From contig OZ243961.1 in NCBI GenBank assembly GCA_965214605.1, positions 736,001-800,000 of the forward strand: a DNA stretch of 64,000 nucleotides, read 5' to 3'. Made by a program: the position numbers and the translations under genes. The notes below the pieces were generated by a model, which had not been told where the DNA came from, ran no database searches, and saw only the letters and a list, made by a program, of their open reading frames with translations. This document shows, piece after piece, positions 17,120 to 35,021 of the stretch (positions are counted from its first letter, which is position 1; each line of letters starts with the position of its first letter). The stretch comes from an uncultured Candidatus Binatia bacterium (GTDB lineage Bacteria > Desulfobacterota > Binatia > Bin18).

Positions 17120-17261
17120 AGGCTCCTCCTTTGCTGCTGATTTCAAATCATAAGCCCAACGGAACTGCAACACGGGCTCGGGGCAACAAAAAAATTGTTG
17201 CCGTTCTCATCCCAGCATGGTAGCGTCGCTCCTCAGTCTTGACACCGAGCGGGGGGACGCT

Positions 17262-18428
17262 ATGGATGCGAAAGCCGGAGCCCGAGAACGCTTTGAGAGT
17301 GTGCGTGCTGATCTCATTGAGCTCAGCCGCCGGATTCACGCCAACCCGGAGTTGGGGTACGAGGAAGAAAAAGCCGCGGCTTGGCTATCGGAGACCCTGG
17401 CCGACGCGGGTTTTCAGGTTGAGAGGGGCATTTGTGATATGCCGACCGCATTTGTCGCTCGGGCGGGCAGCGGACCGCTGCATATTGGGATCTGTGCCGA
17501 GTACGACTGTCTGCCCGAGATCGGCCATGCCTGCGGACATAATATCATTGCCGCCATGGGCGTTGGGGCGGGGATTGCCGCAGCCAAGATTGCCGATGAG
17601 GTCGGACTCACGGTGAGTGTGATCGGGACGCCGGCCGAAGAGGTGTGCGACGGCGGTGGGAAGATCCTGCTCTTAGAGCGTGGCGGCTTTAGCGGGCTAC
17701 ACGCGGCCATGATGGTGCATCCGGCTCCCATGGACATTGTGGAGTTTCCGATTATTGCTGCCTCCATGTTTGACGTGTGTTACACCGGCAAAGAAGCCCA
17801 CGCCTCGGCTTTTCCCGAACGCGGCATCAACGCCGCCGACGCGCTGACCGTTGCCCAAACAGCAATCGGTCTGCTGCGCCAGCACATTCGTTCCAGCGAC
17901 CGTATTCACGGCATTATTACCAAAGGTGGGGACGCGCCGAACGTCATTCCGGCCCGTACCACAGCCCGTTATATCGTGCGGGCCAAGACGATTGAAGACC
18001 TCGCCGAGATCAAGGAGAAAGTCCGGCGCTGTTTTGAAGCCGGTGCTCTGGCAACCGGCTCCGGCCTAGAGATCGTTGGCGGTGAGAAACCGTACGCCGA
18101 AATGCACCACGACCCAGATATCGCCGCCGCCTACCAGCGCAATGCCGAAGCCCTTGGCCGCAGCTTCCCGGATTTGGGACCCAACCTGGAAAAATCAGCC
18201 GGCTCAACCGACATGGGCAATGTTTCGCTGGCTCTACCGTCTATTCACCCGGCCATTGGCATTGACTCGTTACCGGCTGTCAACCATCAGCCCGAATTTG
18301 CCGCCCACTGCATTAGCCCGGCCGCCGAGAAAGCGCTAATTGACGGCTCGCTTGCTATGGCATGGACCGCGGTCGATCTGGCTACGGAGAGCAAAGTTCG
18401 GCAGCGCTTGTTGAGCAAAAGAATCTAG
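17262..18428 (+). CDS. M20 family amidohydrolase/metallopeptidase (AbgB-like)
   Basis: HANPELGYEE, EYDCLP, GHACGHN, GTPAEE and GSTDMGNVS motifs. Confidence 0.9.
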   Translation: MDAKAGARERFESVRADLIELSRRIHANPELGYEEEKAAAWLSETLADAGFQVERGICDMPTAFVARAGSGPLHIGICAEYDCLPEIGHACGHNIIAAMGVGAGIAAAKIADEVGLTVSVIGTPAEEVCDGGGKILLLERGGFSGLHAAMMVHPAPMDIVEFPIIAASMFDVCYTGKEAHASAFPERGINAADALTVAQTAIGLLRQHIRSSDRIHGIITKGGDAPNVIPARTTARYIVRAKTIEDLAEIKEKVRRCFEAGALATGSGLEIVGGEKPYAEMHHDPDIAAAYQRNAEALGRSFPDLGPNLEKSAGSTDMGNVSLALPSIHPAIGIDSLPAVNHQPEFAAHCISPAAEKALIDGSLAMAWTAVDLATESKVRQRLLSKRI

Positions 18429-18446
18429 GCGGAGGGCGCCCGGTCG

Positions 18447-19157
18447 TCAGCGAAACAGTCCGGCCTTGGGCCAAAACCGACCATAGATATTTTCGTATAT
18501 CTCTCCATTTAAAAAGATGTCGGTAAAGGGGCTGGCGTCGGGGGCCATGAGATACAGCAAACACACTGCCCCGACCATCGCGGCCGAGACACCGAGATTG
18601 TTGTACTCAATGACTTTGAGCGCCGTGCCAAACGAACGCTTGAGCCGCGTGCTCATAAAATCCACGCTAAAGATCTCGTCTAGGAGCAGATGGATCGTAT
18701 AGCCGCAGCACACGAAGGTGCCAAGGATCCACGCAAAAAGCGGGCTACAGGCAAAGACTACATAGCTCAGGTTGGTCATCAACAACCCAAAAAACAGTCC
18801 GGCCGCCAGCGAATGAAAAATCCCACGATGGACGGTGAAGCTGGTAAAGACGAGCCAAACCGGGTAACGGATAAAGGCATAGACAAGCAGCCACAACAAC
18901 CACAGTTCAAGAGTGGAGTACTGCTCAACATGGGCGAAGACAACGAGGAAGGCAGCCACAAAACCCAAGACAGTGAAGAGAATTTTAATCGGACTGGAAT
19001 GATCTGAGTCAATATCGGGCAGAATCCCGCCCAGGGTTCCGACCACCGACAGAGTAATTACCTCGCCCGGACTGGCCACTTCAGCCCCTAGGCAAACCGT
19101 GGCCAACAGCCCACTACCAACAGCAGCCACCGTCACGTGGGTCCGAAAATTCGCCAT
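18447..19157 (-). CDS. Membrane-bound metal-dependent hydrolase (YdjM-like)
   Basis: MANFRTH, LPDIDS, HRGIFHS and HLLLDE motifs with TM helices. Confidence 0.85.
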   Translation of the reverse strand: MANFRTHVTVAAVGSGLLATVCLGAEVASPGEVITLSVVGTLGGILPDIDSDHSSPIKILFTVLGFVAAFLVVFAHVEQYSTLELWLLWLLVYAFIRYPVWLVFTSFTVHRGIFHSLAAGLFFGLLMTNLSYVVFACSPLFAWILGTFVCCGYTIHLLLDEIFSVDFMSTRLKRSFGTALKVIEYNNLGVSAAMVGAVCLLYLMAPDASPFTDIFLNGEIYENIYGRFWPKAGLFR

Positions 19158-19159
19158 TT

Positions 19160-19699
19160 TTACTTTTTTCTCAATCCTACCAGCAGGCCAAGAGCGGCCA
19201 CACCAGCGGTCGGGATATTCTCAACGATAAACTCACGGAAACTGCCGGCGTGTGGCTGCATCCAGGCCATCAACGCATTGTAATATCCCTCTATGCCGAG
19301 CCAATTCACATCAATAAGATCGACATACTGCAGACCAAACAGGATCAGCAACAGACCACCGGCAAACAGTGCGACAATCTTCAGAAAGGAAGCCAAGGCG
19401 TAGCCGATACTAAACCCGGCCACGAAGCTGAAACCGAGCTGCATTATTGGCCCGCCCCACTCGTGGAGGTAGTCCCCGAGAGGTGAATCGAGATCGTCAC
19501 GCAGTGCGGGCTCGGCTATCTCGGCCGCTCCAAGCGCGGCCTGATTCGAAAGATCGTCTGCCAGTTCAGCCAGACCGTGTCCGCCAAGAGCCGAAAATCC
19601 AAGAACAAGGACAAGGCCAAAGAGCACTCTAGTGGCTCTCGCTGCATGACAGTGTGGTGGATCTTGTAACGGACGACTCTCGTTGTGCCCTGCGCTCAT
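19160..19699 (-). CDS. FUN14-domain membrane protein with N-terminal extension
   Basis: QLGFSFVAGFSIGYAL..FLK....GG......LQY..LIDVNW motif. Confidence 0.75.
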   Translation of the reverse strand: MSAGHNESRPLQDPPHCHAARATRVLFGLVLVLGFSALGGHGLAELADDLSNQAALGAAEIAEPALRDDLDSPLGDYLHEWGGPIMQLGFSFVAGFSIGYALASFLKIVALFAGGLLLILFGLQYVDLIDVNWLGIEGYYNALMAWMQPHAGSFREFIVENIPTAGVAALGLLVGLRKK

Positions 19700-20089
19700 C
19701 CTCAACCCCTCCGGCTGTCCGCTTATACCTTGCCAGAATACCGACCTTTGGAGACAATAGCCAGTAGGGAGCCCGCCCCCGGAGGGAGGTGCTTGCCCCG
19801 AGGTGGCAAGCGCCGCCTCACGCGGCAAACCGGCCCATCCCGGCAAACGACCGTCGGACTTGGTCTCTGCGGGAGTCAGCATGGAGAGTTCCTGCAGCCC
19901 CAGAGCTCTCTACGCCCAGCCGATATATTCTTTGTTCAAATTAGGACAAAAGCACGGTATTCGGCCGGGGCGGCAGTATCGAGATTGAATCGCTTGACAC
20001 AGTGTCGGGGGGCTGCCATGTTCGGCCCATAGAATGGTACATAACGACGCCTAGCAAGGACCAACCAGCCCGTACACAAAGGAGTTGCC

Positions 20090-21109
20090 ATGCCCCTGCC
20101 TGCCAGCAGCAGCTTCCAACTGACCCCAGACATGTCCATCTGTCGTATCCTCAACGGGATGTGGCAGGTATCTGGGGCGCACGGCAGTATCGACCCCAAG
20201 GCTGCTCTTGAGAGTATGCTTGACCATCATGCGACGGGCTTTCACACCTGGGATCTGGCCGACCATTACGGACCAGCCGAAGATTTTATGGGCGAGTTTC
20301 GGCGTCAGCTTATTGCCAAGCAGGGTGAGGCAGCGTGGTCACACGTCCAGGCCTTTACCAAATGGGTGCCTCGGCCCGGCCGCATGACACGCCAGATTGT
20401 CGAAAACAATATCGCTCGCTCGCTCCGTCGCATGGACGTCGACAGGCTGGATCTCCTGCAGTTTCACTGGTGGGAGTATGCCGATGAGCGTTATCTGGAC
20501 GCGCTCGAGCAGCTGGTCGACCTGCGTGACGAGGGAAAAATTCGCCATCTGGCTCTGACCAATTTTGATACGGCCCATCTCAAAACAATTACCGACGCCG
20601 GTATCCGGGTGGTCTCTAACCAGGTTCAGTTCTCGCTGATCGATCAACGTCCAGAAATTAAGATGACGCCGTTCTGCCAAGAAAACAACATCAGCCTCCT
20701 TACCTATGGTACGGTCTGCGGCGGCTTATTGTCCGAGAAATACCTTGATCACCCCGAGCCAAGCCGCAGACTTCTCAACACGGCGAGTTTACAGAAGTAT
20801 AAGAACATAATTGACGCCTGGGGTGGCTGGCGCCTGTTTCAGGAACTCCTCGCAGTACTCAAACCGATTGCTGAGAAACACGGGGCGAGCATTGCCAATG
20901 TCGCTACGCGCTATATTCTCGACCGCCCAGCCGTTGCCGGCGTCATTGTAGGGATCCGGCTGGGGGTATCAGACCATCGTCAGGATAACGCCCGGGTGTT
21001 TGATCTCAGTCTGGATGAGGCGGATACCAGCCGGATTCAAGCCGTCCTGGCAAAGTCACGTGATCTATACCACCTGATCGGAGACTGTGGGGATGAGTAC
21101 CGGCACTAA
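20090..21109 (+). CDS. Aldo/keto reductase
   Basis: GMWQ, DLADHYG, LDLLQFHWW, NQVQFS and GDCGDEYR motifs. Confidence 0.92.
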   Translation: MPLPASSSFQLTPDMSICRILNGMWQVSGAHGSIDPKAALESMLDHHATGFHTWDLADHYGPAEDFMGEFRRQLIAKQGEAAWSHVQAFTKWVPRPGRMTRQIVENNIARSLRRMDVDRLDLLQFHWWEYADERYLDALEQLVDLRDEGKIRHLALTNFDTAHLKTITDAGIRVVSNQVQFSLIDQRPEIKMTPFCQENNISLLTYGTVCGGLLSEKYLDHPEPSRRLLNTASLQKYKNIIDAWGGWRLFQELLAVLKPIAEKHGASIANVATRYILDRPAVAGVIVGIRLGVSDHRQDNARVFDLSLDEADTSRIQAVLAKSRDLYHLIGDCGDEYRH

Positions 21110-21200: not shown

Positions 21201-24200
21201 TCACCATGTAAGGCGTGGCTTGTCGAGACGCTGCAGTACATCGAGTTTGGTAATGGGGTGTTGTCGAAGGCGTTTCAAAATCCAGGCGTGCTCATAGAGC
21301 TGAACTCCGTGGACTTTTGCGGCCCCTGCTCCCGGTTTGCCAATCTTCCTCGCATTGGTAAAGACGGCAAGTGTGGCAAAATCCTTGGCGAGATGATTGG
21401 CGTAGAATTTCCGAGACGCGTAAATCTCGCGGACAGAGGAGTCGTCCTGTAAAACCTCATGCTTTGTGTATTTGCACTGGGCAAGCTGATTTCCATGGGG
21501 AGAGATCAGCACGATATCGCACCCCTTATCATTGCCCGTAGGAGTAAGATGCACCTCTCCGTCAAACTCTCGGTAAAGAAGTTCCGCCACGAGCGCTTCA
21601 AACTGCTCCCACCCAAGCAGGTCCAGCTCCTTTTCTGAGAGAGGAGGAGCCGGCTGGACTGTTGACTGTCCAAAGACGTCGGTCTGCTGAAACGATTCAT
21701 GGGTCACAATTTCCGGCGCCACTATCGCGTCTTTGAGGTCGACCTTCTTTGTCAGAAGCCGATGAAGATGCAGGTCAAAGGAATCGTGCTCGGGATGGTG
21801 CAAAACCGGAATAAAAACACTCACATCTCTGTCCTGACCGATGCGATAAACCCGGTCGGTGGCCTGCTCCTCTTTGGCGGGATTCCAGTGGCGCTCGAGA
21901 TGAATAACGTTATTGGCTCCCGTAATTGTGAGACCTACCCCGGCTGCCACCGGCGAGATGATCAGTATTCCAAAGCCGTCACACGACTCAAATTGCTCAA
22001 TCAAGCCCCGGCGCGTCAACACGGACTGTCGTTTACCAACCGCCTTCGTATCGCCGTTGAGCACCTCCACGGGTATGGCGTAAATTTTCCCGAGCACATG
22101 CCTCAGGAAGACCTGAAGCCGCCTGTTGATGACAAAAATCAGGACTTTCTCTCGGCGCTCTCTAATTTTGTCCAACACGTTTAATACAACCGACAACTTC
22201 CCGGACTTCCCAGCTTCGGTCCGACACTCTTGAATCGTGGCCGGCGATGGCAGCTCTCCTCCCCCCAGGAGATCTGGATGTAGAGACACATCGCGCAGGC
22301 GCTGCAATCCCCTCAAGAGGTGCTCTAGTCCCGTCCCCTCAGCTATTCCCTGACGGGTGGCCTCGACGACCGTATTGTAGGTAGTGAGCTGTAGACCGGA
22401 CATGGTCCGGGCCAGATGAGGGGAATATTCCTGATTTTTGGTAGTGTCTCCGACACCAACGTACACCCTTTTTTTAGGTAATCCTTCCAAGTAGCCTTCT
22501 TTAGTCCGTCTGAGCATGAGCGCCCCAACGCGTGTCCGGAGCTGTTGACCAACCTCTTGTCGGATCTGCGGCAGAGCTTTACCGGCTCTCAACAACGGGC
22601 GTACGTATGTCTTCCGAAAATCCTGATAACTATCGAGCAAGCCGGGAACAGCCGTGTCGAAAATACACCAGAAATCTCTGAGTTGGTTCTCAACCGGCGT
22701 CCCCGTTACCATGAGTTTGAACTGTGCCTTTATGCCCTTGGCTGCTCGCGTCTGCATGGCGTTGGGATTTTTGATGTTTTGAGCTTCATCAAAAATGACA
22801 AATGACCAATCCACCTGGCACAGTGAGAACTGGTAGTTGGTCAGGGTGCTGTAATTGGTGATGACCAATCGCCTCGGGCTATCTAGGCGGTCGAGTCCGA
22901 ACTCTTCACCCACTTTTAGAGAGAGCAGTGCCCGTTGATTCGTCTCACCGTTCTCAAGAACAGCGTCATCCTCCCGCTCTCGGGCTTCGACGCCGCGACC
23001 TGGGAGGCGATAACGCTTAAGGTCGGCACCACCGTGCAGCGTAACCATATTGACAAAGGGCGAGGCGGCAAAGGTCTGCTCGACCTCTGCTTTCCAGTTA
23101 TCGAGAAGAGACAACGGGGCGACCACTAAAACAGGCTTTTGCACGACCCCGCGTACGGCGCACAGGCGGTAGTACTCCCCAAGGGCGACCAAAGCCGTAA
23201 AGGTCTTGCCCAGTCCCATGTCGTCGGCCAATAGACTCCCGAACAGGGATTCTTCATCAGAATGTTCAAGCGCCTGCTGTGAGAGGCCGACCAACCATCG
23301 GATCCCTCTCTGTTGATAGGGAAATGGCGACCGCTTGTAATCCTCCCACGCGAGTTCGCCCTGATAAAGATGTTTGTCAATCGTTGAGTCTATGTAGCGG
23401 GATTTTATATCAAGACGCTCGTCATTGGGGTGAACGTCGACAACGATCTTTGCCCGACTGCTCTCATCTTCTTCAGCCTCGGCCTGGCTCGGTTTTTTCG
23501 GAGAAACCTCGATGGCGCCCTGAGCCCGAAGTTCTCGTTCGAGTCCGTCGAGAGTACGCTCAACTACGTCCCGATTGGCAATCGAGATCGTCTGTTCCTT
23601 GAACGAAATCTCGTTGCCCCCGGCCTGAACGGCATCTTGCAGTCGTTCCCGAAATTCGGCAAGATCCGTCAAATCCTGGATCGCGCTGCCAAGACTCTCC
23701 ACCCCCAGAGGAGATCCAGACGTCTCAGCGCTTCCTCGATCCAACCAATCAATCCCCGATGCTTCCGTCTCACCGAAGTAGGCGTGTCTGAACTCTGCGG
23801 CGCCGCGCACTCGCGCGGAATAGCCGACATCCAGATCAACGAGGGTGACATCAAGGAACGCCGTTGGGGAGGCGAGGAATTGTTTGATATATTTCGCTGG
23901 TATGGAGCGGTTTTTAATAATTTCCTGAGTCGCCTTCAGGCGTTTCTCGTCGAGCAGGATAATTGTATCGCCAACCCGCAGGCTCTGGACCGTATCGTTA
24001 TCCGGGGCTATCTGACCTAGACGATTGGCAACCTGCTCGGCTGAAACGAGCCCCTCAAAATTCGGAGTGAGTTCAAGATCACCGTTTGCAAGCCGCTCAA
24101 GCGAAACCGACACTCGCTGCGGTTCTACCGTCTTGAGGTCGGTAAACTGACGCAAGTCGATGTCACAGCCGGCTTCAGCGGCTTTCTGGACATGCTGGAC

Positions 24201-24734
24201 GGCGAGCAGATTGCGGTATTCAGACCGCGCCCCATCCACCAGCGCCTGATGGTCGGCAACTGCCTTCAAAGCCAACCATTGGTCTGGGGATGGAAGATAG
24301 TGCTCGGTTTCGCTGAGGCGCAGAAAAGGACCTTCGAGGCGGTATGAAGCCGCCGTATCCCCGCTCGCCGTCCGCAGGCGCAGGCGGAGCCTAAAAGAGG
24401 GCTGGAAGCTGCTCCCCTGCGTCCTGAGTTCCAAGCTGCCAGGCCAGCTGTCGGGGAGTCCAAACAGCAAACGTAGGTCCGATTCCAGGTTGACCACGGT
24501 TTCGGGTTCCAACGCAAAGCCATTCGCAAACCGCTCGGCAAGTCCCTGCTCTTCGAGCACTTTAAAATGGGCATATTGCGTCAGTGATAGCTCACCACCC
24601 TTTCCGGACTCGCAATCGGCAAAGGCCTTCTGTGGCAGATAAAAGCTGACATCTTCTTTTTCTGCCCTGTACGAGAAACCCTCATCCTGGGAGTTTCTCT
24701 GCCACAGTGCCGCTATTCGTTCTCTGACGGACAT
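21201..24734 (-). CDS. zorD: Zorya ZorD: SNF2 helicase/ATPase with C-terminal Mrr-like nuclease
   Basis: LADDMGLGKT, DEAQ, TGTPVEN and HWNPAKEEQATDRVYRIGQ motifs; C-terminal FEALVAEL..DKGCD..AQCK; last gene of the zorABC operon. Confidence 0.9.
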   Translation of the reverse strand: MSVRERIAALWQRNSQDEGFSYRAEKEDVSFYLPQKAFADCESGKGGELSLTQYAHFKVLEEQGLAERFANGFALEPETVVNLESDLRLLFGLPDSWPGSLELRTQGSSFQPSFRLRLRLRTASGDTAASYRLEGPFLRLSETEHYLPSPDQWLALKAVADHQALVDGARSEYRNLLAVQHVQKAAEAGCDIDLRQFTDLKTVEPQRVSVSLERLANGDLELTPNFEGLVSAEQVANRLGQIAPDNDTVQSLRVGDTIILLDEKRLKATQEIIKNRSIPAKYIKQFLASPTAFLDVTLVDLDVGYSARVRGAAEFRHAYFGETEASGIDWLDRGSAETSGSPLGVESLGSAIQDLTDLAEFRERLQDAVQAGGNEISFKEQTISIANRDVVERTLDGLERELRAQGAIEVSPKKPSQAEAEEDESSRAKIVVDVHPNDERLDIKSRYIDSTIDKHLYQGELAWEDYKRSPFPYQQRGIRWLVGLSQQALEHSDEESLFGSLLADDMGLGKTFTALVALGEYYRLCAVRGVVQKPVLVVAPLSLLDNWKAEVEQTFAASPFVNMVTLHGGADLKRYRLPGRGVEAREREDDAVLENGETNQRALLSLKVGEEFGLDRLDSPRRLVITNYSTLTNYQFSLCQVDWSFVIFDEAQNIKNPNAMQTRAAKGIKAQFKLMVTGTPVENQLRDFWCIFDTAVPGLLDSYQDFRKTYVRPLLRAGKALPQIRQEVGQQLRTRVGALMLRRTKEGYLEGLPKKRVYVGVGDTTKNQEYSPHLARTMSGLQLTTYNTVVEATRQGIAEGTGLEHLLRGLQRLRDVSLHPDLLGGGELPSPATIQECRTEAGKSGKLSVVLNVLDKIRERREKVLIFVINRRLQVFLRHVLGKIYAIPVEVLNGDTKAVGKRQSVLTRRGLIEQFESCDGFGILIISPVAAGVGLTITGANNVIHLERHWNPAKEEQATDRVYRIGQDRDVSVFIPVLHHPEHDSFDLHLHRLLTKKVDLKDAIVAPEIVTHESFQQTDVFGQSTVQPAPPLSEKELDLLGWEQFEALVAELLYREFDGEVHLTPTGNDKGCDIVLISPHGNQLAQCKYTKHEVLQDDSSVREIYASRKFYANHLAKDFATLAVFTNARKIGKPGAGAAKVHGVQLYEHAWILKRLRQHPITKLDVLQRLDKPRLTW

Positions 24735-24785: not shown

Positions 24786-26282
24786 TTAGACGACACCGTG
24801 TCGGCGTCTGTATTCCCGGTAGTCCTTAGAGCTCAACACGTCCGAGGGATCAATAGACGTTCCTAATTCCTGCAATGTCTTTATAGCCTTATACTGCCAC
24901 CTAGCAGGCTGATGCGTGATCTCGACAACCCCGGTGTGTCCAAATTGAGACACATAATCTTCATACAGTCCTTTTCCTAAGTCGCGGTGGGGAATATTAT
25001 CGCGTTCATAATTCTCAATAGGATTACCCCGAGGAAGTCGTCCGTATATCCGCAAGGAGAAACTGTGCGTTCCCTCAACAACATACTTTCCGTCGATGTT
25101 GAGATAGATGACCGAGAGAGAGGAGTGCCGCACTCGAGAATAAGCAGGGATATCCTTGTTCCGATAATGACGCCGGACGTAATCTTGAGCCCGCCTGCCG
25201 AGAAACAGCCGCGCGTCTTTGACTAGCCGCTTCTCAAAAACTCCTTTGAGAAAGCGCTTACGCGATGGAAACATCCGTTTCAGATCAGGATCGGAACTCT
25301 GCTCCACATGGTCTTCAAGGACTTTGAGAAACAGCTCGATATCCATTCCCGAGAGCCACTGACGGACCTGCTTGACATATTTATCGCCTAGTATGGCCCA
25401 CCAGTGTCTGTAATTGACCGCCCCCTTACTCACCCGCGGATCGCCGGCAATGGATAAGATCACCCGGAGCCAGTTCTCCGGCATATCCTGGCGGCGGGCA
25501 GCCCGATCAACCATGACTTGAACCACCTTGTGCCCCAGCAACCAGTCGCTTTCATAGGCGCTTTCATAGATGTCTTTCCGCACCAGTTCACGTAGAACCT
25601 CGTGGTCTTGGCCAACCTGGAGTTCTTTCAGAGGAGCCAAATAGTAGATGTTCTTACACTTGGTGAAGAAGCGGCCGCCGCTTTCCATAGGAAGTCCAAG
25701 ACGAGACGCAATTGTTTCCAAGGGAAGGGCGTCCTTCCGGGCCTGCTCAACAACCCATGCCGGGCCATCGATGGAAAAGAGAGTCTCGGCGTGTTGGGCA
25801 AAGAGAGCGAGCGTTTGTGAGAACTTTCTGTCGGCGTTCAGCCGAAACTGTTCTCGGAGAAATTCGGCAAATGACCAAGTATCCCCAAGCTCATCAAAAC
25901 GGGCAAAAAAGAGCTGGGTGCAGGCAAACAGCACAAGCGGCGAGTATCTTTGACGTAACGCCCTCAAATGCTTAAGTGTGGCAGGGTCGATCGGGTTGCG
26001 CTTAACGCACTCTTCACACTCCTGCCATAATTCCACCAGCGGACGGACATCTTTGGGTGTCCGCACGACGTTTTGGATGCGCCGCCTCCGGTGCAACAAG
26101 CCGTGAATATGTTTCTTACGCTTCCTAAAGGCCTCGGAGTTGGTCCCGGCCGTGTGGGCAAGCCGTTCAAGTTTGCCGGACAGGGCTTGATAGTGTACCA
26201 CGTCCGCCCTACCGGTCTGCTTGGGCAGAGTAAAGTCCAGTCTGGCGAGGCTCAATCGGGGGAGCTTAATTGTCAAAGACAT
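24786..26282 (-). CDS. zorC: Zorya ZorC (EH-signature domain)
   Basis: W...ILSIAGDPR, FLKVLE, RMFPSRKRFL and VVEGTHSF...ITH...WQ motifs; sits between zorB and zorD. Alternative start at 26306. Confidence 0.88.
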   Translation of the reverse strand: MSLTIKLPRLSLARLDFTLPKQTGRADVVHYQALSGKLERLAHTAGTNSEAFRKRKKHIHGLLHRRRRIQNVVRTPKDVRPLVELWQECEECVKRNPIDPATLKHLRALRQRYSPLVLFACTQLFFARFDELGDTWSFAEFLREQFRLNADRKFSQTLALFAQHAETLFSIDGPAWVVEQARKDALPLETIASRLGLPMESGGRFFTKCKNIYYLAPLKELQVGQDHEVLRELVRKDIYESAYESDWLLGHKVVQVMVDRAARRQDMPENWLRVILSIAGDPRVSKGAVNYRHWWAILGDKYVKQVRQWLSGMDIELFLKVLEDHVEQSSDPDLKRMFPSRKRFLKGVFEKRLVKDARLFLGRRAQDYVRRHYRNKDIPAYSRVRHSSLSVIYLNIDGKYVVEGTHSFSLRIYGRLPRGNPIENYERDNIPHRDLGKGLYEDYVSQFGHTGVVEITHQPARWQYKAIKTLQELGTSIDPSDVLSSKDYREYRRRHGVV

Positions 26283-27012
26283 CCAATATCCCTTGGTATT
26301 CTTCAATGACGGGTTGTCTCACCGTAAAGCGCAGGTCGATACGCCGATTTTTGCGCCGCTTTTCATCCGTGTCGTCAGGTTCTTGCAGGCGGCGCGTCGC
26401 AGCATAGCCGCTGACCGAGAAAAGAGGCTTCCCTTGGAAATTCAGGAGAGTGGCAAGACCGTTGGAAGCTGCGCGTTCCTCGGTCCAGAAACGCCACACC
26501 TGTATCGCCCGGTTTGCGGATAATCCCCAGTTCCCGAGTTCAAGGGTCCGAGCAGGTCTGCTGTCGGTATGGCCCTCCACAAAAATCGTATCAAGAAATT
26601 TGTGGCGGCCATCCTTGAGTCTCCGCCGTAGAGCGCTGTTAAGCGTGTTGCCAATCGTATACACCGCGTCCTGTCTATCCGGGGGAATCTGATAGCTGCG
26701 AGTCTCAAAAAAGAGGTATTCATCAGGAATCCGCAGTACGGTCTTGTTATCGCTCACCTCAACCAGTATGCCATGCTCCTCCAGCTGCTTCTTGATCTCG
26801 TCAAGGAGGTCGGCGCGGTTCTTATTCGCCTCACTCAATTCTTGAATCGCCTGCTCAACGTCAAGCCGTCTTTTCTGAAGCTGAATAATAAACACCACCG
26901 ACGCCAAAATGAAAATCACCAACAGACCGGCCATGATATCGGAAAACGAAATCCAATAAGGATTCTCTTCGTCAACGTGCCGCCTGACATCGCTGGAGAC
27001 GCGCTGAAACAT
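26266..27012 (-). CDS. zorB: Zorya ZorB (MotB/OmpA-like peptidoglycan-binding stator subunit)
   Basis: YWISFSDIMAGLL TM segment with conserved Asp; VEGHTD, NWGLSANRA and NRRIDLRF OmpA motifs. Confidence 0.92.
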   Translation of the reverse strand: MFQRVSSDVRRHVDEENPYWISFSDIMAGLLVIFILASVVFIIQLQKRRLDVEQAIQELSEANKNRADLLDEIKKQLEEHGILVEVSDNKTVLRIPDEYLFFETRSYQIPPDRQDAVYTIGNTLNSALRRRLKDGRHKFLDTIFVEGHTDSRPARTLELGNWGLSANRAIQVWRFWTEERAASNGLATLLNFQGKPLFSVSGYAATRRLQEPDDTDEKRRKNRRIDLRFTVRQPVIEEYQGILDVFDN

Positions 27013-27017
27013 AGACC

Positions 27018-30000
27018 TTATCTCCTTCTCTCAATCTTGCCGTCCATCTCTTCGACAGTGCTGGCAAGAGAGACAACTGCCGCCTGCATAGCGTTTGTAT
27101 AATTCTGGGTTTGCTTGGTCCACTCGTTCAGACGGTCTTGGGTCTGTGTCTGCACTTGGCTCGCGTAGTCCCTCAGAAGCTGAGCGACCTGCTTTTGCAA
27201 CTGGTCAACATGCTCCTCGAGAGCCGCAAACAACTGCTGCTGATGCTGAGTGAGCTGAGTCGTCTGCCGGCGCGAGGCGTCTGCCGCTTCCGCGATTCTA
27301 TCAGCCGCGCTGGAGAGCATGTCCTTAAGACCGGTAATGACGCCAATCACCTGATTGATATTGCGACCCGTCGTCTCATTCTCCCTGGCAAGCCGCCGGG
27401 TTTGCTCCAACACTTGACCTAGGGCCCGGCCGAGCTGATCAACCCCCGACTGAAGCCGTTCAGACAGAGTTCGTAGTCCGCCGGAAGCGTTGTTCAGCAA
27501 CTCGCCGCCCGTCCGTATTGCCGAGGCAGATGTTTGAAGTCCTTCTGTAACCGCTGCGATCTGCTCATACAATCTCTGACTCTGTTCAAGAACCGTTTGC
27601 GAGGCCTGAATATGGCCATCAAACGAGGCGGCCCAGGCAGTCTCTCTGGCGTCCATACGCTGGTTCAGCGCCTCTAGAGCATCCATAAAGTGCGTCATTG
27701 AGCCGCCCCACTGACTAATGGCCGTCTTCACCTCCGCCGTTGTCGCCTCCATCATCTTCCGCTGTTGTTCGCCTTGACCTCTCAGGCCGTCGCCGAATTG
27801 TCCGACTGCTGTTTCCATCGTACTTGAATACTGTTCGGCCTGCTTAGTCCATTCACGCAGATGGGTTTGGGTCTGGGTCTGCGCCTGATCCACGTAATCC
27901 GCCACAAGCTGAGCGGCCTGCTGTTGCGACTGCTCAACATAGCGCGAGAAGGCGTCCTGCGAGGCCTGAATATGGCTGTCAAACGAGGCGGCCCGGGCAG
28001 TCTCTCTGGTGTCCATACGCTGGTTCAGCGCCTCTAGAGCATCCATAAAGTGCGTCATTGAGCCGCCCCACTGACTAATGGCCGTCTTCACCTCCGCCGT
28101 TGTCGCCTCCATCATCTTCCGCTGCTGTTCGCCTTGACCTCTCAGGCCATCGCCGAATTGTCCGACCGCTGTTTCCATCGTACTTGAATACTGTTCGGCC
28201 TGCTTAGTCCACTCACGCAGATGGGTTTGGGTCTGGGTCTGCGCCTGATCCACGTAATCCGCCACAAGCTGAGCGGCCTGCTGTTGCGACTGCTCAACAT
28301 GGCGCGTGAGGGTGTCCTGCGAGGCCTGAATATGGCCATCAAACGAGGCGGCCCGGGCAGTCTCTCTGGTGTCCATACGCTGGTTCAGCGCCTCTAGAGC
28401 ATCCATAAAGTGCGTCATTGAGCCGCCCCACTGACTAATGGCCGTCTTCACCTCCGCCGTTGTCGCCTCCATCATCTTCCGCTGCTGTTCGCCTTGACCT
28501 CTCAGGCCATCGCCGAATTGTCCGACCGCTGTTTCCATCGTACTTGAATACTGTTCGGCCTGCTTAGTCCACTCACGCAGATGGGTTTGGGTCTGGGTCT
28601 GCGCCTGATCCACGTAATCCGCCACAAGCTGAGCGGCCTGCTGTTGCGACTGCTCAACATGGCGCGTGAGGGTGTCCTGCGAGGCCTGAATATGGCTGTC
28701 AAACGAGGCGGCCCAGGCAGTCTCTCTGGCGTCCATACGCTGGTTCAGCGCCTCTAGAGCATCCATAAAGTGCGTCATTGAGCCGCCCCACTGACTAATG
28801 GCCGTCTTCACCTCCGCCGTTGTCGCCTCCATCATCTTCCGCTGTTGTTCGCCTTGACCTCTCAGGCCGTCGCCGAATTGTCCGACTGCTGTTTCCATCG
28901 TACTTGAATACTGTTCGGCCTGCTTAGTCCACTCACGCAGATGGGCTTGGGTCTGGGTCTGCGCCTGATCCACGTAATCCGCCACAAGCTGAGCGGCCTG
29001 TTGTTGCAACTGCTCAACATGGCGCGTGAGGGTGTCCTGCGAGGCCTGAATATGGCTGTCAAACGAGGCGGCCCGAGCGTTCTCTCTGGTGTCCATACGC
29101 TGGTTCAGCGCCTCTAGAGCGTCCATAAAGTGCGTCATTGAACCGCCCCACTGACTAATGGCCGTCTTCACCTCCGCCGTTGTCGCCTCCATCATCTCCC
29201 GCTGCTGTTCGCCTTGACCTCTCAGGCCGTCGCTGAATTGATGGACGAGATTCTCAAGAGCCTCGGCGCCGCCACGTGCCTGACGCGACGCGAGATCGCC
29301 CGCAGCCTGAGCAAGGGATTCCAGAGCGGGCTGCATGCCCTGCTGAATACCTTCGAAAACAGCGGATTGGACGTTCTGTGTCACCTGGTTGATTGTTTCC
29401 TGCATTTTATTGCCGATGCGTTCGGAAAGGCCGTCCAGAGCAATGGCGGCTTGACGAGTTTCCTCATGAACATGGACCAGCGTTTGTTCCGGACTGAGAC
29501 GCGGAAAGAGTGCGTCTATCTTATTCTGTAAGGTCGTAATCTTGTATCTGACGCGCTGTTCGACGGCTTTTTCGATCAGGTTGAAAACAAAGCTCAGGGC
29601 TACTCCCCAGACCGAGGTCTTAAAAGCGATAGAGGCCCCATCTATCAAACGGGTGATACTGGCCACATCCTCAGGATTGACGTTGGACAAACCCAGGAAC
29701 AGACCGGTGAAAGTCCCGACAACACCAATAGCGGTCAGGAATGCGGGAACAGCAGCGAGAAGGCGATTTTCCGTGATACCTCGCCCCAAAGTGTGCGCAT
29801 TAAAGAAATGGGCGGCATCATAGGTATTCTGGATTCGCTCTTCACCTTTGGACACAACGAAGGTCTCGTCAAACTCCTCCCAGAGCTCACCCAGTCGCTT
29901 GTTGCGCTGCTGCCGGGCCTGCTGCTTCAGATCCTGACGTTTGTCCATCAGACTATCCGGTTTAAGCCCTCGGAGAAGTTTGCGGAAGAACGCTGTCGAC

Positions 30001-30188
30001 CTCCAAGAGCGACCCCAAGCCCAGAACACCCAGAGCAGAAAGCAGCCAAAGAGCAACCATAAGACGTAGATAAAAAGAGAACTTATCCCTTCCGAGGTCA
30101 CATCGCCGCTGAGCAAGCCGCTGAGCAAGGCGAACGGTTCAATTTTTGGTAGGAGATCATAAAAGTCAAAAGTGATTTTATCCTCCAT
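27018..30188 (-). CDS. zorA: Zorya ZorA (MotA-like TM domain plus long helical cytoplasmic tail) with internal 120-aa repeats
   Basis: Three TM segments; AHFFN..TL, LTAIGVVGTFTGL and AFKTSVWG motifs; roughly 800-aa coiled-coil-like tail; upstream of zorBCD. Confidence 0.92.
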   Translation of the reverse strand: MEDKITFDFYDLLPKIEPFALLSGLLSGDVTSEGISSLFIYVLWLLFGCFLLWVFWAWGRSWRSTAFFRKLLRGLKPDSLMDKRQDLKQQARQQRNKRLGELWEEFDETFVVSKGEERIQNTYDAAHFFNAHTLGRGITENRLLAAVPAFLTAIGVVGTFTGLFLGLSNVNPEDVASITRLIDGASIAFKTSVWGVALSFVFNLIEKAVEQRVRYKITTLQNKIDALFPRLSPEQTLVHVHEETRQAAIALDGLSERIGNKMQETINQVTQNVQSAVFEGIQQGMQPALESLAQAAGDLASRQARGGAEALENLVHQFSDGLRGQGEQQREMMEATTAEVKTAISQWGGSMTHFMDALEALNQRMDTRENARAASFDSHIQASQDTLTRHVEQLQQQAAQLVADYVDQAQTQTQAHLREWTKQAEQYSSTMETAVGQFGDGLRGQGEQQRKMMEATTAEVKTAISQWGGSMTHFMDALEALNQRMDARETAWAASFDSHIQASQDTLTRHVEQSQQQAAQLVADYVDQAQTQTQTHLREWTKQAEQYSSTMETAVGQFGDGLRGQGEQQRKMMEATTAEVKTAISQWGGSMTHFMDALEALNQRMDTRETARAASFDGHIQASQDTLTRHVEQSQQQAAQLVADYVDQAQTQTQTHLREWTKQAEQYSSTMETAVGQFGDGLRGQGEQQRKMMEATTAEVKTAISQWGGSMTHFMDALEALNQRMDTRETARAASFDSHIQASQDAFSRYVEQSQQQAAQLVADYVDQAQTQTQTHLREWTKQAEQYSSTMETAVGQFGDGLRGQGEQQRKMMEATTAEVKTAISQWGGSMTHFMDALEALNQRMDARETAWAASFDGHIQASQTVLEQSQRLYEQIAAVTEGLQTSASAIRTGGELLNNASGGLRTLSERLQSGVDQLGRALGQVLEQTRRLARENETTGRNINQVIGVITGLKDMLSSAADRIAEAADASRRQTTQLTQHQQQLFAALEEHVDQLQKQVAQLLRDYASQVQTQTQDRLNEWTKQTQNYTNAMQAAVVSLASTVEEMDGKIERRR
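27599..29240. repeat. Tandem repeat, 360-bp unit, about 4.5 copies, inside zorA
   Basis: gaggcctgaatatgg recurs at 27601, 27961, 28321, 28681 and 29041; copies differ by only a few substitutions and stay in frame. Confidence 0.98.
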
Positions 30189-30257: not shown

Positions 30258-31082
30258 TTAGATCGTCGCCAACGGAACGGCCACTCCGGGTATGTCCACT
30301 CGGGTGTGGAAAATTGTCCCCTTACGGTCCGGATCTTCGGTATTGTCGGCGGTCACAATGTACAGGTCACGCCGGTCTTGACCGCCAAAACACAAACTCG
30401 TGACGGCCTTGGCCGGCACCTCAACAACGTGATCGGCCGTTCCGTCAGGCGCAAAGCAGGTCGCACAGCCTCCTCCATACACCGCCACCCACACACGGCC
30501 GGACTCGTCAACTGCTAAGCCGTCGGGGACCTCGTCGAGCGTGGCAAAGACGCGCCGATTGGTCGCTGTTCCGTCCGCGGTGATCTCATGTGCGATGACT
30601 TGTTTCACCGCGCTGTCGGCGTGGTAGAGCAGTTTTCCGTCCCCAGACGTGCCAATGCCGTTCGTAATACCGATATTCCCATACATCTCGGTCGCCTGCC
30701 CCTCGGCTTCAATCCGCCACAACTCCCCCGGTACCTGGCTTGCAAGCTTGAATGGGTCTGACCGCAACGCCCCGGCGTAGATCCGGCCAGCGCTATCGGT
30801 GAAAATATCGTTAAAGCCGGGAATATCATCGCGCTGAAACAAAATACGGCTCGTTCCGTTCTTGACGTGACAGATGTTCTTACCGGAGACGACCACCCCG
30901 CCGTCGGCGTGCAGCGCAATCCCCCCGACGCCCCGCCGTTTTGGCACGACTGTTACAATCTCCCCATTTGGCGAACGACGATACACCCCGCCATTTGTGA
31001 CATCACTAAAAAACAGATTTCCAGCCGCGTCGACCCGTGGTCCCTCAATCAGTCCATAGCCTGAGGCAAGTGTTTCCAGCAT
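30258..31082 (-). CDS. SMP-30/gluconolactonase/LRE family protein
   Basis: EGP, FND, NGIG, PDGLAVDESG and TSLCFGG motifs. Confidence 0.92.
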   Translation of the reverse strand: MLETLASGYGLIEGPRVDAAGNLFFSDVTNGGVYRRSPNGEIVTVVPKRRGVGGIALHADGGVVVSGKNICHVKNGTSRILFQRDDIPGFNDIFTDSAGRIYAGALRSDPFKLASQVPGELWRIEAEGQATEMYGNIGITNGIGTSGDGKLLYHADSAVKQVIAHEITADGTATNRRVFATLDEVPDGLAVDESGRVWVAVYGGGCATCFAPDGTADHVVEVPAKAVTSLCFGGQDRRDLYIVTADNTEDPDRKGTIFHTRVDIPGVAVPLATI

Positions 31083-31243
31083 GTGTTCCTCCCTGTATGA
31101 CAGTCTGGAAAGGGCCGCTGCGCCCTTCCCTGCTCAGCTTATAGCGCGCGGACTTCCGGTTGCCAAACCAGGGGTAAGTAGACTATAGAAGGGAAGAGAT
31201 TAACCAAAACCGTACGCCGTAGCGTACAAAGGAGGTAGTTCCG

Positions 31244-31645
31244 ATGAGCGCAGAAGAGAACAAAAAACTGGTACTGGGCTTCTTCGAAGATATGTCGGCC
31301 GGCAATGCCGAGGCGTTCCTAGGAGCGATGGCGGACAACGCGACGTGGTGGGTCGCCGGGGATCCCAAGAACTTTCCCCTGGCCGGTACAAAGACAAAAG
31401 CCGAATTTACCCAACTGCTCCAAGGTATGGGAGCCGCTATGCCCAAGGGCTTAAAAATCACGCCCAAGGGTGTAACCGCGGAAGGTAACCGGGTCGCGGT
31501 CGAAGCCGAATCCTATGGAGAGCACGCCAATGGCAAAATCTACAACAACCTGTACCACTTCCTGGTTGAATGCGGAGACGGCAAGATCACAGCCGTCCGC
31601 GAATACCTTGATACCATGCACGCACAGGACGTGCTGGTGGGCTAG
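31244..31645 (+). CDS. SnoaL/NTF2-like protein
   Basis: AEGNRVAVEAES and YNNLYHF....GKITAVREYLDT motifs. Confidence 0.9.
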   Translation: MSAEENKKLVLGFFEDMSAGNAEAFLGAMADNATWWVAGDPKNFPLAGTKTKAEFTQLLQGMGAAMPKGLKITPKGVTAEGNRVAVEAESYGEHANGKIYNNLYHFLVECGDGKITAVREYLDTMHAQDVLVG

Positions 31646-31688
31646 ACGACGGCTCAGGCGGCTCTGAGCCCATGGCCCCGACACTATG

Positions 31689-31713
31689 GGGCACGGGAGA
31701 CCGTGCCCGTTTT
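31689..31713 (+). terminator. Putative intrinsic terminator between convergent genes
   Basis: GGGCACGG-GAGA-CCGTGCCC hairpin followed by GTTTT. Confidence 0.55.
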
Positions 31714-31726
31714 ATGCTCTATCATA

Positions 31727-33073
31727 TCAGACCGGCCAGAACATCTTTTTGGCCTGAGCTTTGAGTTCCGGCTGAAAATCCGGATGGGCAATCTCAATGA
31801 GTGCCTCGGCGCGTTGACGCTGAGTCCTGCCCTGGAGATTCACTATTCCAAACTCGGTGACCACATAATCGGCATACTGGCGGGGTGTCGTCAGCGTGCT
31901 GCCCGGCTCAAGCATAGGCACAATCCGGGACAGCCGACCCCTTTTGGCCGTCGAGGGCAGAACCATAATTGAGCGTCCGCCCGGCGAGTACATCGCTCCC
32001 ATCATAAAAGTCATCTGCCCGCCAATGCCCGAGTACATCTGGGGACCGAGCGATTCAGCCGCGGCCTGCCCTGTCAGGTCAATGGCTAAGGTGCTGTTCA
32101 CCGCGACCTGATGGTTTTGGGCGGCGATATTCAGCAGCGAGTTCGTGTACAGCACGCTATACAGCTCAAAGACCGGATTATTATCCACAAACTCCAGGTC
32201 GGCTCCCCCCACGACCATAGCGGCGACGGCTTTGCCCTGGTGCACGGCTTTGTACTTGCCGGTTGCGACACCGCGTTTCACCAGCTCAACATGACTGGCG
32301 GTCATGATCTCGCTATGGACGCCGAGATCGTTACGGTCCATCAGAAACAGTCCGATCGCCTCGGAAATGGCCCCGATGCCCATCTGGACCGTATCGCCGT
32401 CATGAATCAAGCCGGCGGCAAATTCGCCGATCACTTCAAGCGTACCCTGCTCTTCCGCCGGCGGCGGGGCCGTACCGACCGGAAAGGGGGCGGTTTCCTC
32501 AACGAGATAGTCAATCTCTGAGACATGAATCCAATTATCACCATGGGTACGGATGAAGGTCGGATCGACCTCGGCAACAAAGCATCTGGCCGCTCTGGCG
32601 GCGTCTTTGTTGTACCATAAAGCGTTGCCAAAGCTGCAGTAGCCCCGCTCATCGGGCGGAGAAACCACACCGTAGAAGATATCGGCCTGCCAGGTGTTGG
32701 TGCGGCCGTCTTCGGCCTGCTTGGCATACTGGGGATAATCCAGGGGCAGAAAGTCGACATAGTGTTTCTGCATGCCTTGGCGGCAGCCCGCCCCTACATA
32801 GTCCACAATCAGGTGAAAGGACTGGTCATAGCCCGGTTCGTTCCAGATCGGGTGGCTGTACAGCGGATAGCACTGAATCAACGTCACGCTCTCGAGCTGG
32901 CCGTTGCGTTTGGCTAGGGCATCGAGAATGGGAATAGGTGGTTTACCGATATGGAGCCGGACGAGTTGGCCGGATTGAGTCAGGCGTGCCGCCTGCTCAG
33001 CAGAAATGAGTTTATCTCTATAGGTGTGTTGCCAGGGTTCCATGTGTCTCTTCTCCAAATTCGTCCGGGACAC
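31727..33073 (-). CDS. Acetyl-CoA hydrolase / 4-hydroxybutyrate CoA-transferase family protein
   Basis: VSPPDERGYCSFG, QMGIGAI, LGVHSE, SGIGGQ and YVVTEFG motifs; start may be 33043. Confidence 0.9.
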   Translation of the reverse strand: MSRTNLEKRHMEPWQHTYRDKLISAEQAARLTQSGQLVRLHIGKPPIPILDALAKRNGQLESVTLIQCYPLYSHPIWNEPGYDQSFHLIVDYVGAGCRQGMQKHYVDFLPLDYPQYAKQAEDGRTNTWQADIFYGVVSPPDERGYCSFGNALWYNKDAARAARCFVAEVDPTFIRTHGDNWIHVSEIDYLVEETAPFPVGTAPPPAEEQGTLEVIGEFAAGLIHDGDTVQMGIGAISEAIGLFLMDRNDLGVHSEIMTASHVELVKRGVATGKYKAVHQGKAVAAMVVGGADLEFVDNNPVFELYSVLYTNSLLNIAAQNHQVAVNSTLAIDLTGQAAAESLGPQMYSGIGGQMTFMMGAMYSPGGRSIMVLPSTAKRGRLSRIVPMLEPGSTLTTPRQYADYVVTEFGIVNLQGRTQRQRAEALIEIAHPDFQPELKAQAKKMFWPV

Positions 33074-33840
33074 TACCCCACCAGACTATGTCCGCCATCG
33101 ACAAACAAGGTGGTACCCGTCATAAACGTATTGGCATCCGAAGCCAGAAAGATCACCGAGGGTTTGATCTCTGAAGGATTGCCGACTCGTTGCATCGGAA
33201 TCTTAGCGATAATGCCCTTCCCCCCTTTAGTCTCCCAGAAACCAGCGTTCATCGGTGTCTCAAAATAGCCCGGACACAGGGCATTCACCCGGATGTTGTC
33301 CCGGGCCCATTCGAGTGCCAGCGTCCGGGTAAAATGGACCAGAGCAGCCTTGGTCGCCCCGTAGGCCGCCATATAGCGGGCGACGATCCGTGAGAACAGC
33401 GAGGAGACGTTGATGATTGTGCCTTTTTTGCGCTTGGCCATTTCCGCCCCGACGTGTTTGGCACAGAACACCGGCCCTTTCAGATTCAGGTTCATATAGC
33501 TGTCCCACTCCTCCTCGACCAGATCCCGAATCGGCGTCGTGCCCCCCATACCTGCGTTATTGATCAAAATATCGATCCGGCCGTACTCAGCCATGACCTG
33601 CCCGACCATACGCTCAATATCGGCTTCCTTGGTCACGTCGGCCGCCACGCCAATGACCCGGCGACCGCTCGCCCGGCGCATCTCTGCCGAGACCCTGTCG
33701 AGGTCGGCCTGGGTACGGCTAATCAGCGCGAGATCCGCCCCAGCCTCGGCTAGGCCATACGCCATCTGCTCGCCTAAACCTTTGCTCCCGCCGGTAATGA
33801 GAGCAACTTTGCCCGTTAGGTCAAAATAGGGAAGTGTCAT
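33073..33840 (-). CDS. SDR oxidoreductase (gluconate 5-dehydrogenase-like)
   Basis: TGGSKGLG, NNAG and YGATK motifs. Confidence 0.9.
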   Translation of the reverse strand: MTLPYFDLTGKVALITGGSKGLGEQMAYGLAEAGADLALISRTQADLDRVSAEMRRASGRRVIGVAADVTKEADIERMVGQVMAEYGRIDILINNAGMGGTTPIRDLVEEEWDSYMNLNLKGPVFCAKHVGAEMAKRKKGTIINVSSLFSRIVARYMAAYGATKAALVHFTRTLALEWARDNIRVNALCPGYFETPMNAGFWETKGGKGIIAKIPMQRVGNPSEIKPSVIFLASDANTFMTGTTLFVDGGHSLVG

Positions 33841-33872
33841 ACAACTTTCCTCAGTCAGCAGTCTGTCCGTCT

Positions 33873-35021
33873 TCAGCACCCCAGCTGCCGGGCAATCACC
33901 ATCCGCTGCACCTCGCTGGTGCCCTCGCCAATGGTCAGGATCTTCGAATCAAGATAGAAACGCGAAACCGGAAAGTCGCGCGTATAGCCGTAACCCCCGT
34001 GAATTTGGACCGCTTCTTCAGCTGCCTTGACCGCAATCTCCGATGAGGCCAGCTTGGCCATAGCGGCCTCTTTAGCATACGGACGGCCCTGGTCGCGCAA
34101 CCCCGCGGCGCGGTAGACCATGAGTCTGGCCATATCGACCTGGGTCGCCATATCCGCCAGCTTAAACTGAATCGCCTGGTGCGAGGCCAGCGGCTTCCCA
34201 AACGTTTTGCGCTCTTGGGCGTACTGGAGTGACATATTCAGGCACGCCTCGGCCAGAGACAGGCCAAGCGTGGCAACCGAGATCCGACCACACTCCAAGG
34301 TCTTGAGAAAGGCTCGAAAGCCTGAGCCGTCCTCGCCCAACAGATTGTCGCGGGGAACCCGCACATCCTCAAACACCTGCTCGCGGGTATCAACCGTATG
34401 CCATCCGATCTTTTTGTACGGCTTACCGATCGTATAGCCAGGCGTGTCTTTGGGAATAATAATGGCTCGATAGGCTCGTTTTCCGTTCTCGCCTGCATGG
34501 TCGGCGGTCAGCGCTACGAGTCCATAGCTGAGCGGTGTTCCGGCGTTTGAGATAAAACACTTGGTGCCGTTGACGACCCACGAGTCGCCATCCAGATATG
34601 AGGTGGTATGGATATTGGCCGCGTCGGAGCCGGCCTGCGGTTCGGTCAGGCCAAACGCCCCTAAACGTTCCCCGCGCGCCAGTGGAGTGAGCCACTTGTG
34701 CTTCTGTTCCTCAGTGCCAAAGTGCAAAAAGGGCAAAGAACCGATCGTTAGATGGGCTTGCAGCGTGGTGGCAATCGATTGATCCACCTTGCCGAGCTCT
34801 TCGAGGGCCGCCACCATGGCCATGGTGCCGGCACCAGTGCCACCGTACTCCTTGGGGATGAGTAGGCCCATCAGTTGGAGGTCTGCCAGCTTGTGAAAGA
34901 TCTCGGCCGGAAAATACTCGGCATCAAACCATTCATCGGCGTAGGGCGCGATCTCTTTGTGGGCGAAATCGCGGATCATATCCTTCAGCATCTGCTGTTC
35001 AGCCGTCAGTTCAAAGTCCAT
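33873..35021 (-). CDS. Acyl-CoA dehydrogenase
   Basis: GLTEPQAGSD, NGTKCFISN, QIHGGYGY and IGEGTSEVQR motifs. Confidence 0.95.
   Translation of the reverse strand: MDFELTAEQQMLKDMIRDFAHKEIAPYADEWFDAEYFPAEIFHKLADLQLMGLLIPKEYGGTGAGTMAMVAALEELGKVDQSIATTLQAHLTIGSLPFLHFGTEEQKHKWLTPLARGERLGAFGLTEPQAGSDAANIHTTSYLDGDSWVVNGTKCFISNAGTPLSYGLVALTADHAGENGKRAYRAIIIPKDTPGYTIGKPYKKIGWHTVDTREQVFEDVRVPRDNLLGEDGSGFRAFLKTLECGRISVATLGLSLAEACLNMSLQYAQERKTFGKPLASHQAIQFKLADMATQVDMARLMVYRAAGLRDQGRPYAKEAAMAKLASSEIAVKAAEEAVQIHGGYGYTRDFPVSRFYLDSKILTIGEGTSEVQRMVIARQLGC

Follow-up and report, generated by a model that had tools for sequence, protein, structure and literature searches.

Why would the tail of a rotary defence motor carry, several times over, the motif that marks its own end? 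The question is raised by a zorA gene in the stretch of DNA analysed here (the window; 64,000 nucleotides, positions 736,001 to 800,000 of contig OZ243961.1 of an uncultured Candidatus Binatia bacterium), in which a type I Zorya operon encodes a ZorA protein of 1056 amino acids (aa), the longest among the 120 homologs listed (the next has 875 aa). Five tip modules were found in its one tail, four internal and one terminal, and our analysis indicates that the tail has probably been enlarged by recombinational expansion of a native segment.

Anatomy of the ZorA tail

Tandem Repeats Finder reported a 360-bp period at 27598-29240 with 4.6 copies, 97% matches, 0 indels and a score of 3083. The features of the gene and its tail are listed below, where bits are scores on a family tip hidden Markov model (HMM) and BLOSUM62 scores are those of the alignment with the terminal module.

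27018..30188, minus strand: zorA, 1056 aa, a MotA/ExbB-like motor domain followed by a tail of ~815 aa
27598..29240, minus strand: tandem array (aa 317-864) with a 360-bp unit equal to 120 aa
28878..29237, minus strand: unit 1 (aa 318-437), comprising Gly-rich motif, A segment and tip-like module
28518..28877, minus strand: unit 2 (aa 438-557)
28158..28517, minus strand: unit 3 (aa 558-677)
27798..28157, minus strand: unit 4 (aa 678-797), whose module opens with YVEQ, not HVEQ
27598..27797, minus strand: partial unit 5 (aa 798-864), with nothing but the A segment, the counterpart of A2 in the 692-aa orthologs described below
29199..29237, minus strand: Gly-rich motif F-x-x-G-x-x-G-x-G-x-x-Q-R, opening unit 1 (aa 318), found by regular expression
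28839-28877, 28479-28517, 28119-28157 and 27759-27797, minus strand: further copies of the Gly-rich motif (aa 438, 558, 678 and 798)
28884..29021, minus strand: internal tip-like module 1 (aa 390-435), BLOSUM62 149, 53.5 bits
28524..28661, minus strand: internal tip-like module 2 (aa 510-555), 26 of 46 residues identical to the terminal module, BLOSUM62 144, 46.6 bits
28164..28301, minus strand: internal tip-like module 3 (aa 630-675), aligned to the terminal module and scored on the family tip HMM
27804..27941, minus strand: internal tip-like module 4 (aa 750-795), BLOSUM62 138, 46.6 bits
27075..27212, minus strand: true C-terminal tip module (aa 993-1038), 76.5 bits on the HMM, which was built from 252 distant ZorAs
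27021..27074, minus strand: end segment, the last 18 aa beyond the tip module, with 0.80 mean pairwise identity in the clade

The units differ from each other at 6-16 of 360 nt (95.6–98.3% DNA identity). Partial unit 5, which is without the tip-like half, is identical to unit 2 over its first 179 nt and from offset 200 is unlike every unit.

A preliminary description of this locus had proposed that the second half of the repeat is a diverged copy of the C-terminus, aligning with it without gaps and sharing HVxQ, QL, DY, QTQTQ, EWTKQ, Y, M and AV, and that five such modules (four internal, one terminal) lie along one tail within 27060-29040; both proposals were borne out, as was the similarity when set against shuffled controls. 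The gap-free alignment of the internal and terminal 46-aa modules (26 of 46 identities) scored 144 with BLOSUM62, while 20,000 shuffles gave a mean of -11.6, a standard deviation of 13.2 and a maximum of 55 (z 11.8), and the best unrelated offset elsewhere in the window ZorA scored 41. A profile built only from the internal modules of close relatives was then compared with 111 distant ZorAs, in which it matched the C-terminus of 109 (107 at an independent E-value below 1e-3) and detected 0 significant internal sites (35 internal matches, the best at 0.032). The terminal-module profile matched the C-terminus of all 111 and no internal site. Since a profile of internal modules alone finds the tips of distant ZorAs, the internal modules are, on the sequence evidence, true paralogs of a family-wide tip motif.

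On the family tip profile the terminal modules of the clade scored 70.6–77.3 bits and the internal modules 43.9–53.5 bits. The internal modules thus match the tip profile in sequence but not in position: they are neither C-terminal nor followed by the end segment, and what follows each full internal module is the Gly-rich motif with which the next unit opens. When aa 941-1056 were searched with phmmer in 1.84 billion cluster representatives, 207 proteins were returned at E<=0.001, and exactly one significant module was carried by 140 of the 141 new 50%-cluster representatives listed, with none carrying two; five modules were seen in the window protein alone in that representative survey. The count of modules per protein proposed in the preliminary description came out as one in nearly all distant ZorAs, at the C-terminus, and five here.

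Older internal similarity was also sought. Smith-Waterman comparison of the last 70 aa with the rest of the protein gave z values of at least 16.6 in all eight close-clade proteins with a full C-terminus, and only 2 other proteins of the 120 lay above z 5, with 27 of the 120 above z 3, a weak signal. A test for an ancient internal copy among distant ZorAs, in which hhalign compared the tip block with the tail remainder, gave P 0.0036 and a probability of 9%; block-by-block profile comparison was unreliable, the A1 block matching every other block at E ~1e-30. One further protein of 3832 aa (P0177) matched residues 36-80 of the tip query in 12 stretches (E 6.8e-9); it is most likely a giant repeat protein that resembles the query in its Q-rich helices without being related.

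The A segment opens with the Gly-rich motif, which in distant ZorAs takes the form F-x-x-G-x-G-x-x-G-x-x-Q-[RK] and is near-invariant in its key positions (of 111 distant proteins, F in 106, the three G in 94, 95 and 108, and Q in 110). Scanned with an A profile, 79 of 195 distant full-length ZorAs had a single A and none had two. With a single A and a single tip in distant ZorAs, the duplicates of both are specific to the clade, and the window ZorA carries five copies of each of these conserved tail landmarks. The hydrophobic periodicity of the tail dips at each copy of the Gly-rich motif, and in PMC11946911 the AlphaFold model of the E. coli tail is described as irregular at residues 312-322, about where the motif lies. 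The Gly-rich motif may form a hinge or irregularity in the tail, of which the window ZorA would have five.

Copy number among close relatives and a model for the expansion

The closest relatives of the window ZorA (72–78% identical) belong to Candidatus Binatia genomes. Orthologs of 692-694 aa read A1-T1-A2-M-T2-end and have one internal tip copy, T1, bracketed by A1 and A2, which form a direct repeat of 66-72 aa. The preliminary description had called the repeat unit a chimera; it does combine a mid-tail segment with a tip copy, but the combination was not made by the amplification, being present as a contiguous, native A1-T1-A2 in these orthologs. Lengths of ZorA in the clade fit 572+120n aa, with n = 0, 1, 2 and 4:

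n = 0: 572-573 aa, six clusters at 90%, of which two were also read in the genomes L003 and L004
n = 1: 692-694 aa, six clusters together with L002 and G037
n = 2: 812 aa, one cluster
n = 4: 1056 aa, this window only

Trees were built from the ZorA flanks outside the repeat with IQ-TREE and FastTree. Forms with n = 0 adjoin n = 1 sisters (support 97/92 and 100/99 in IQ-TREE), and four such pairings were obtained in FastTree with support of 0.96-1.0. The n = 2 form groups as sister to n = 1 forms, and lineage-specific residues are common to both of its units, which shows that the expansions were independent; together with the interleaving of n = 0 and n = 1, this placement means that copy number has changed repeatedly and independently in the clade. 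The most economical history would start with n = 1 in the ancestor, followed by several losses and two expansions. At the two n = 0 loci that were read (L003 and L004), full-length zorB, zorC and zorD open reading frames (ORFs) lie downstream.

Of 56 genomes in the order, 6 carry this ZorA; among seven congeners it is present in one, as an n = 1 form. In that sole congener with the system (G037, locus L024), zorA groups with P0005 and P0007 and not with the window gene, which suggests either that the operon has moved horizontally or that its alleles are deeply diverged. In another n = 1 relative (L001:8085-8830), zorB is split near 8340 into two frames of 122 and 163 aa in place of one of 248 aa; the cause is either a genuine frameshift or an indel introduced by long-read sequencing error. 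Scans of metagenome contigs gave 0 and then 12 relatives, all distant (29–47% identity) and none within the clade.

Comparison of the copies at the DNA level gives the order of events. Internal and terminal modules are 70–73% identical in DNA, a divergence far greater than that between units (95.6–98.3% identity), which points to a duplication of older date and a recent amplification after it, as the preliminary description had supposed; the single internal copy of the 692-aa orthologs agrees with this. A1 and A2 are 82% and 71% identical in the DNA of two n = 1 orthologs, and the first and last A of the window are 94% identical with an exact run of 55 nt.

In the model that we favour, the ancestor of this small clade would have acquired a second A (the Gly-rich motif and the helix following it) and a second tip module T, giving the tail order A1-T1-A2-M-T2-end. 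The A1/A2 direct repeats, 360 bp apart, would then be a substrate for unequal homologous recombination, which would add or remove whole 120-aa A+T units and yield alleles of 572+120n aa. The n = 4 form of the window would be the largest allele seen, its A copies homogenised by gene conversion, and unequal homologous recombination with gene conversion is thus the most likely origin of the array. All junctions within the array are native ones. In five of six tails the hydrophobic period lies at 3.64-3.69 residues, the exception being a distant homolog with its peak at 3.58; the hydrophobic power of the repeat sits at 120/33 = 3.64 residues, so that one unit equals 33 turns; with native junctions and whole turns, the coiled-coil register is expected to be kept.

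The pentameric coiled-coil tail of E. coli ZorA spans residues 223-729 (507 residues) and ~70 nm (PMC11946911). Scaled from it, each unit would lengthen the pentameric tail of the present protein by ~17 nm, corresponding to tails of ~48, ~65, ~82 and ~115 nm for n = 0, 1, 2 and 4. The internal modules would ride with the unit as passengers, degraded paralogs with no free end, and are probably needless for effector recruitment.

Mid-tail tandem duplications of their own (aa ~340-500) were observed in other ZorAs, namely P0079, P0120, the group P0029/P0031/P0063/P0040, P0049, the pair P0073/P0061, and P0055, with lags of 148, 29, 69, 40, 40 and 51 aa, respectively. All of these lags but 148, together with the 120 found here, fall within 0.03 of whole turns at 3.636 residues per turn, a period picked post hoc. 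Judged by these sequences, the middle of the ZorA tail is generally prone to in-frame tandem duplication.

Alternative explanations

Several observations weigh against expansion of a native segment by recombination, and they are considered here with the alternatives to which they belong. The trees do not separate loss from allelic exchange, and n = 0 could in principle be the ancestral state, in which case recombination between strains would have spread the n = 1 alleles. The AlphaFold2 monomer model of the whole ZorA was unusable (mean predicted local distance difference test score 38.5, predicted template modelling score 0.22); in this low-confidence model the tail is helical and breaks near the Gly-rich and QWGGSM stretches. 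The copy number of the array rests on the assembly, and contigs of four public short-read runs (Logan) break inside the array, none bridging it and with no joints reported. There could accordingly be fewer true units, the 4.6 copies being a product of mis-assembly of the repeat. We regard such an artefact as very improbable: the units are in frame and distinguishable by their 6-16 differences, the source contig is 4.31 Mb long in a genome of 9 contigs, and an independent genome holds an n = 2 allele. In three of the runs the repeat-internal contigs had ~2-4.5x the k-mer depth of the flanks, which fits several copies although it is not a count, and a piece specific to unit 4 was at about flank k-mer depth.

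A further point against an expansion of value to the cell comes from E. coli, in which the tail is needed for both defence and ZorD co-localisation and every change of tail length tested, in each case a truncation, abolished defence (PMC11946911, accessible text); since such changes kill defence there, a large extension might be harmful and not adaptive. The array could accordingly be a neutral or harmful accident of recombination, the over-long tail impairing or inactivating a system that is perhaps decaying. The branch that bears the zorA flanks of the window is indeed long (0.20, where most relatives have 0.008-0.17), synonymous and non-synonymous codon differences between units stand at ~1:1, and the system is patchy (the 6 of 56 genomes given above). 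However, all four operon ORFs are full length, the units hold 6-16 substitutions and no indel or stop, which implies that the reading frame of the array has been maintained over some time, and natural changes of ±120 aa recur in the clade beside intact partner genes. A harmful or neutral array is therefore considered improbable.

If the tip is the landing or activation site of ZorC and ZorD, the four internal copies could instead make the tail multivalent, recruiting extra sets of effectors and amplifying the response. The internal modules are real paralogs of the tip, with 26-27 of 46 residues kept, and the conservation of the tip module would fit a functional site: no other tail segment is as well conserved in the clade (mean pairwise identity 0.90), and the module is present in 111 of 111 distant ZorAs. 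Deletion of the E. coli tail tip (residues 435-729) led to loss of ZorD co-localisation, and the Pseudomonas zorC and zorD did not complement the E. coli system, which suggests direct contacts (PMC11946911). The published 'tip' deletion, however, takes out ~295 residues and not a 46-aa module, binding of effectors to the tail was not shown directly there, and the stoichiometry in E. coli is ~1 ZorC and 1 ZorD per ZorA5B2 (PMC11946911, accessible text). Within the clade, the internal module is the least conserved and fastest evolving tail segment (0.77, against 0.90 for the terminal one), that of the window is only 0.62 identical to its orthologous counterparts, and internal modules score 25-30 bits below terminal ones on the family tip profile. 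The internal copies are also without the conserved 18-aa end segment and a free terminus, and six clade clusters have no internal copy at all, such alleles being as common as single-copy ones. Bit scores, conservation and module-free alleles thus lean against equivalence of internal and terminal modules, and a multivalent tail seems unlikely to us. Set against the passenger status proposed above, the internal modules retain most of the positions at which they agree with the tip, among them W, both Y, the QTQ motifs, M and AV, so that a weak residual role is possible. An ESMFold2 prediction of four copies of ZorA 965-1056 (the real tail is a pentamer) with ZorC gave a score of 0.00 and a mark of 0.32, which speaks neither for nor against binding.

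A variant of this proposal would see the ZorA tail as a ruler adjustable by recombination, built of 120-aa cassettes of 33 turns, each with a Gly-rich hinge, a helix and a tip-like module, where tail lengths set effector depth and the internal tips act as weaker landing sites for ZorC and ZorD. If it held, the n = 4 tail would be multivalent and alleles of ~48, 65, 82 and 115 nm would set the depth of effector engagement in the cytoplasm; we think this doubtful, and prefer expansion of the native segment with the internal modules as passengers.

The operon and comparison with known systems

The remaining genes of the operon are as follows.

26266..27012, minus strand: zorB, 248 aa, PADLOC ZorB1 307 bits, Pfam OmpA 40.5 bits (cut-off 27.2)
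24786..26306, minus strand: zorC, 506 aa from a TTG start, PADLOC ZorC1 458 bits, EH_Signature PF15611 230 bits (cut-off 27.5)
21201..24734, minus strand: zorD, 1177 aa, Snf2 helicase and Mrr-like nuclease, PADLOC ZorD1 1224 bits

ZorA matched PADLOC ZorA1 (PDLC00601) with 674 bits, NCBIfam NF033915 (antiphage_ZorA_2) with 477 bits against a cut-off of 100, and Pfam MotA_ExbB (PF01618) with 27.7 bits against 22.9, and ZorD exceeded the cut-offs of SNF2-rel_dom (PF00176), Helicase_C (PF00271) and Mrr_cat (PF04471). The genes follow one another on the minus strand in the order A-B-C-D (30188-27018, 27012-26266, 26306-24786, 24734-21201). With each of the four genes identified and in the expected order, the operon is by its sequence an intact type I Zorya zorABCD. 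The longest zorC frame, from the TTG, overlaps the 3' end of zorB by 41 nt (26266-26306), and an ATG 8 codons inside it matches the start of the PADLOC profile and the starts in relatives; this inner ATG is the likelier start. Metabolic genes border the operon on both sides (17217-21109 and 30258-35021), encoding an aldo/keto reductase, gluconolactonase-like and SnoaL-like proteins, an acetyl-CoA transferase, an SDR and an acyl-CoA dehydrogenase, and the setting is not a defence island. The GC content of the operon (0.53-0.585) overlaps that of its surroundings (0.55-0.59), with zorB to zorD slightly lower (0.53-0.55) and the zorA repeat region not.

In its accessible parts, the published work on Zorya finds the tail essential and leaves open whether the signal is carried by the length of the tail, by its tip or by both, and at which site ZorC and ZorD bind (PMC11946911). 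The clade described here is a natural allelic series of 0, 1, 2 and 4 equal-length, in-register cassettes with motor, tip and effectors otherwise alike, and could be used to separate tail length from tip identity, a more useful result than multivalent docking. The 46-aa C-terminal motif and the Gly-rich motif are, in addition, conserved tail landmarks of this ZorA subfamily.

The ZorA5B2 stoichiometry, the pentameric tail and the anti-phage activity are known from the E. coli and Shewanella systems only (PMC11946911 and PMC11890865). The closest solved relative of the window protein is the type I ZorA of Shewanella sp. ANA-3 (PDB 8VVN, 696 aa; PMC11890865; phmmer E 4.5e-74), which belongs to the same NCBIfam/PADLOC ZorA subfamily and aligns in the motor domain, the Gly-rich motif region, and the tip module and end segment (query 860-1052 to chain 503-695). 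It differs in that the tip region aligns to it once, at its own C-terminus, with little similarity opposite the internal module (as judged from the alignment, which did not include a scan with the module profile), and in having no 120-aa tandem array, its tail (236-696) being ~460 aa long against ~815 aa in the window ZorA. The ZorA of E. coli NCTC 9026 (PDB 8QYD, 729 aa; PMC11946911) shares the ZorA5B2 motor and has a pentameric coiled-coil tail of ~70 nm, but is distant (E 6e-8, aligned over 48-568) and its C-terminus is unaligned to the tip module.

We found neither a natural nor an engineered extension of a ZorA tail in the accessible part of PMC11946911, and our searches of the Zorya literature listed none that deals with repeats in ZorA tails or with internal copies of the tip, although Extended Data Fig. 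6b of PMC11946911, a distribution of tail lengths, may show long-tailed outliers. The 692-aa Candidatus Binatia orthologs (P0006-P0011, L002 and G037) have the same operon, the same A1-T1-A2-M-T2 order and one internal tip; they differ in having one internal unit in place of four, and 71–82% DNA identity between A1 and A2 against 94% in the window. While the type I Zorya system itself is known, a repeat-lengthened tail carrying degraded copies of its own end motif is new. Size variants of streptococcal M protein and of phage tape-measure proteins provide a parallel, in which in-frame recombination between tandem repeats changes the length of a helical rod in whole units. Those are other proteins with other functions: in the ZorA described here, the rod is a tail that a rotary motor of phage defence extends into the cytoplasm, and each repeated unit includes a copy of the motif found at the end of that rod.

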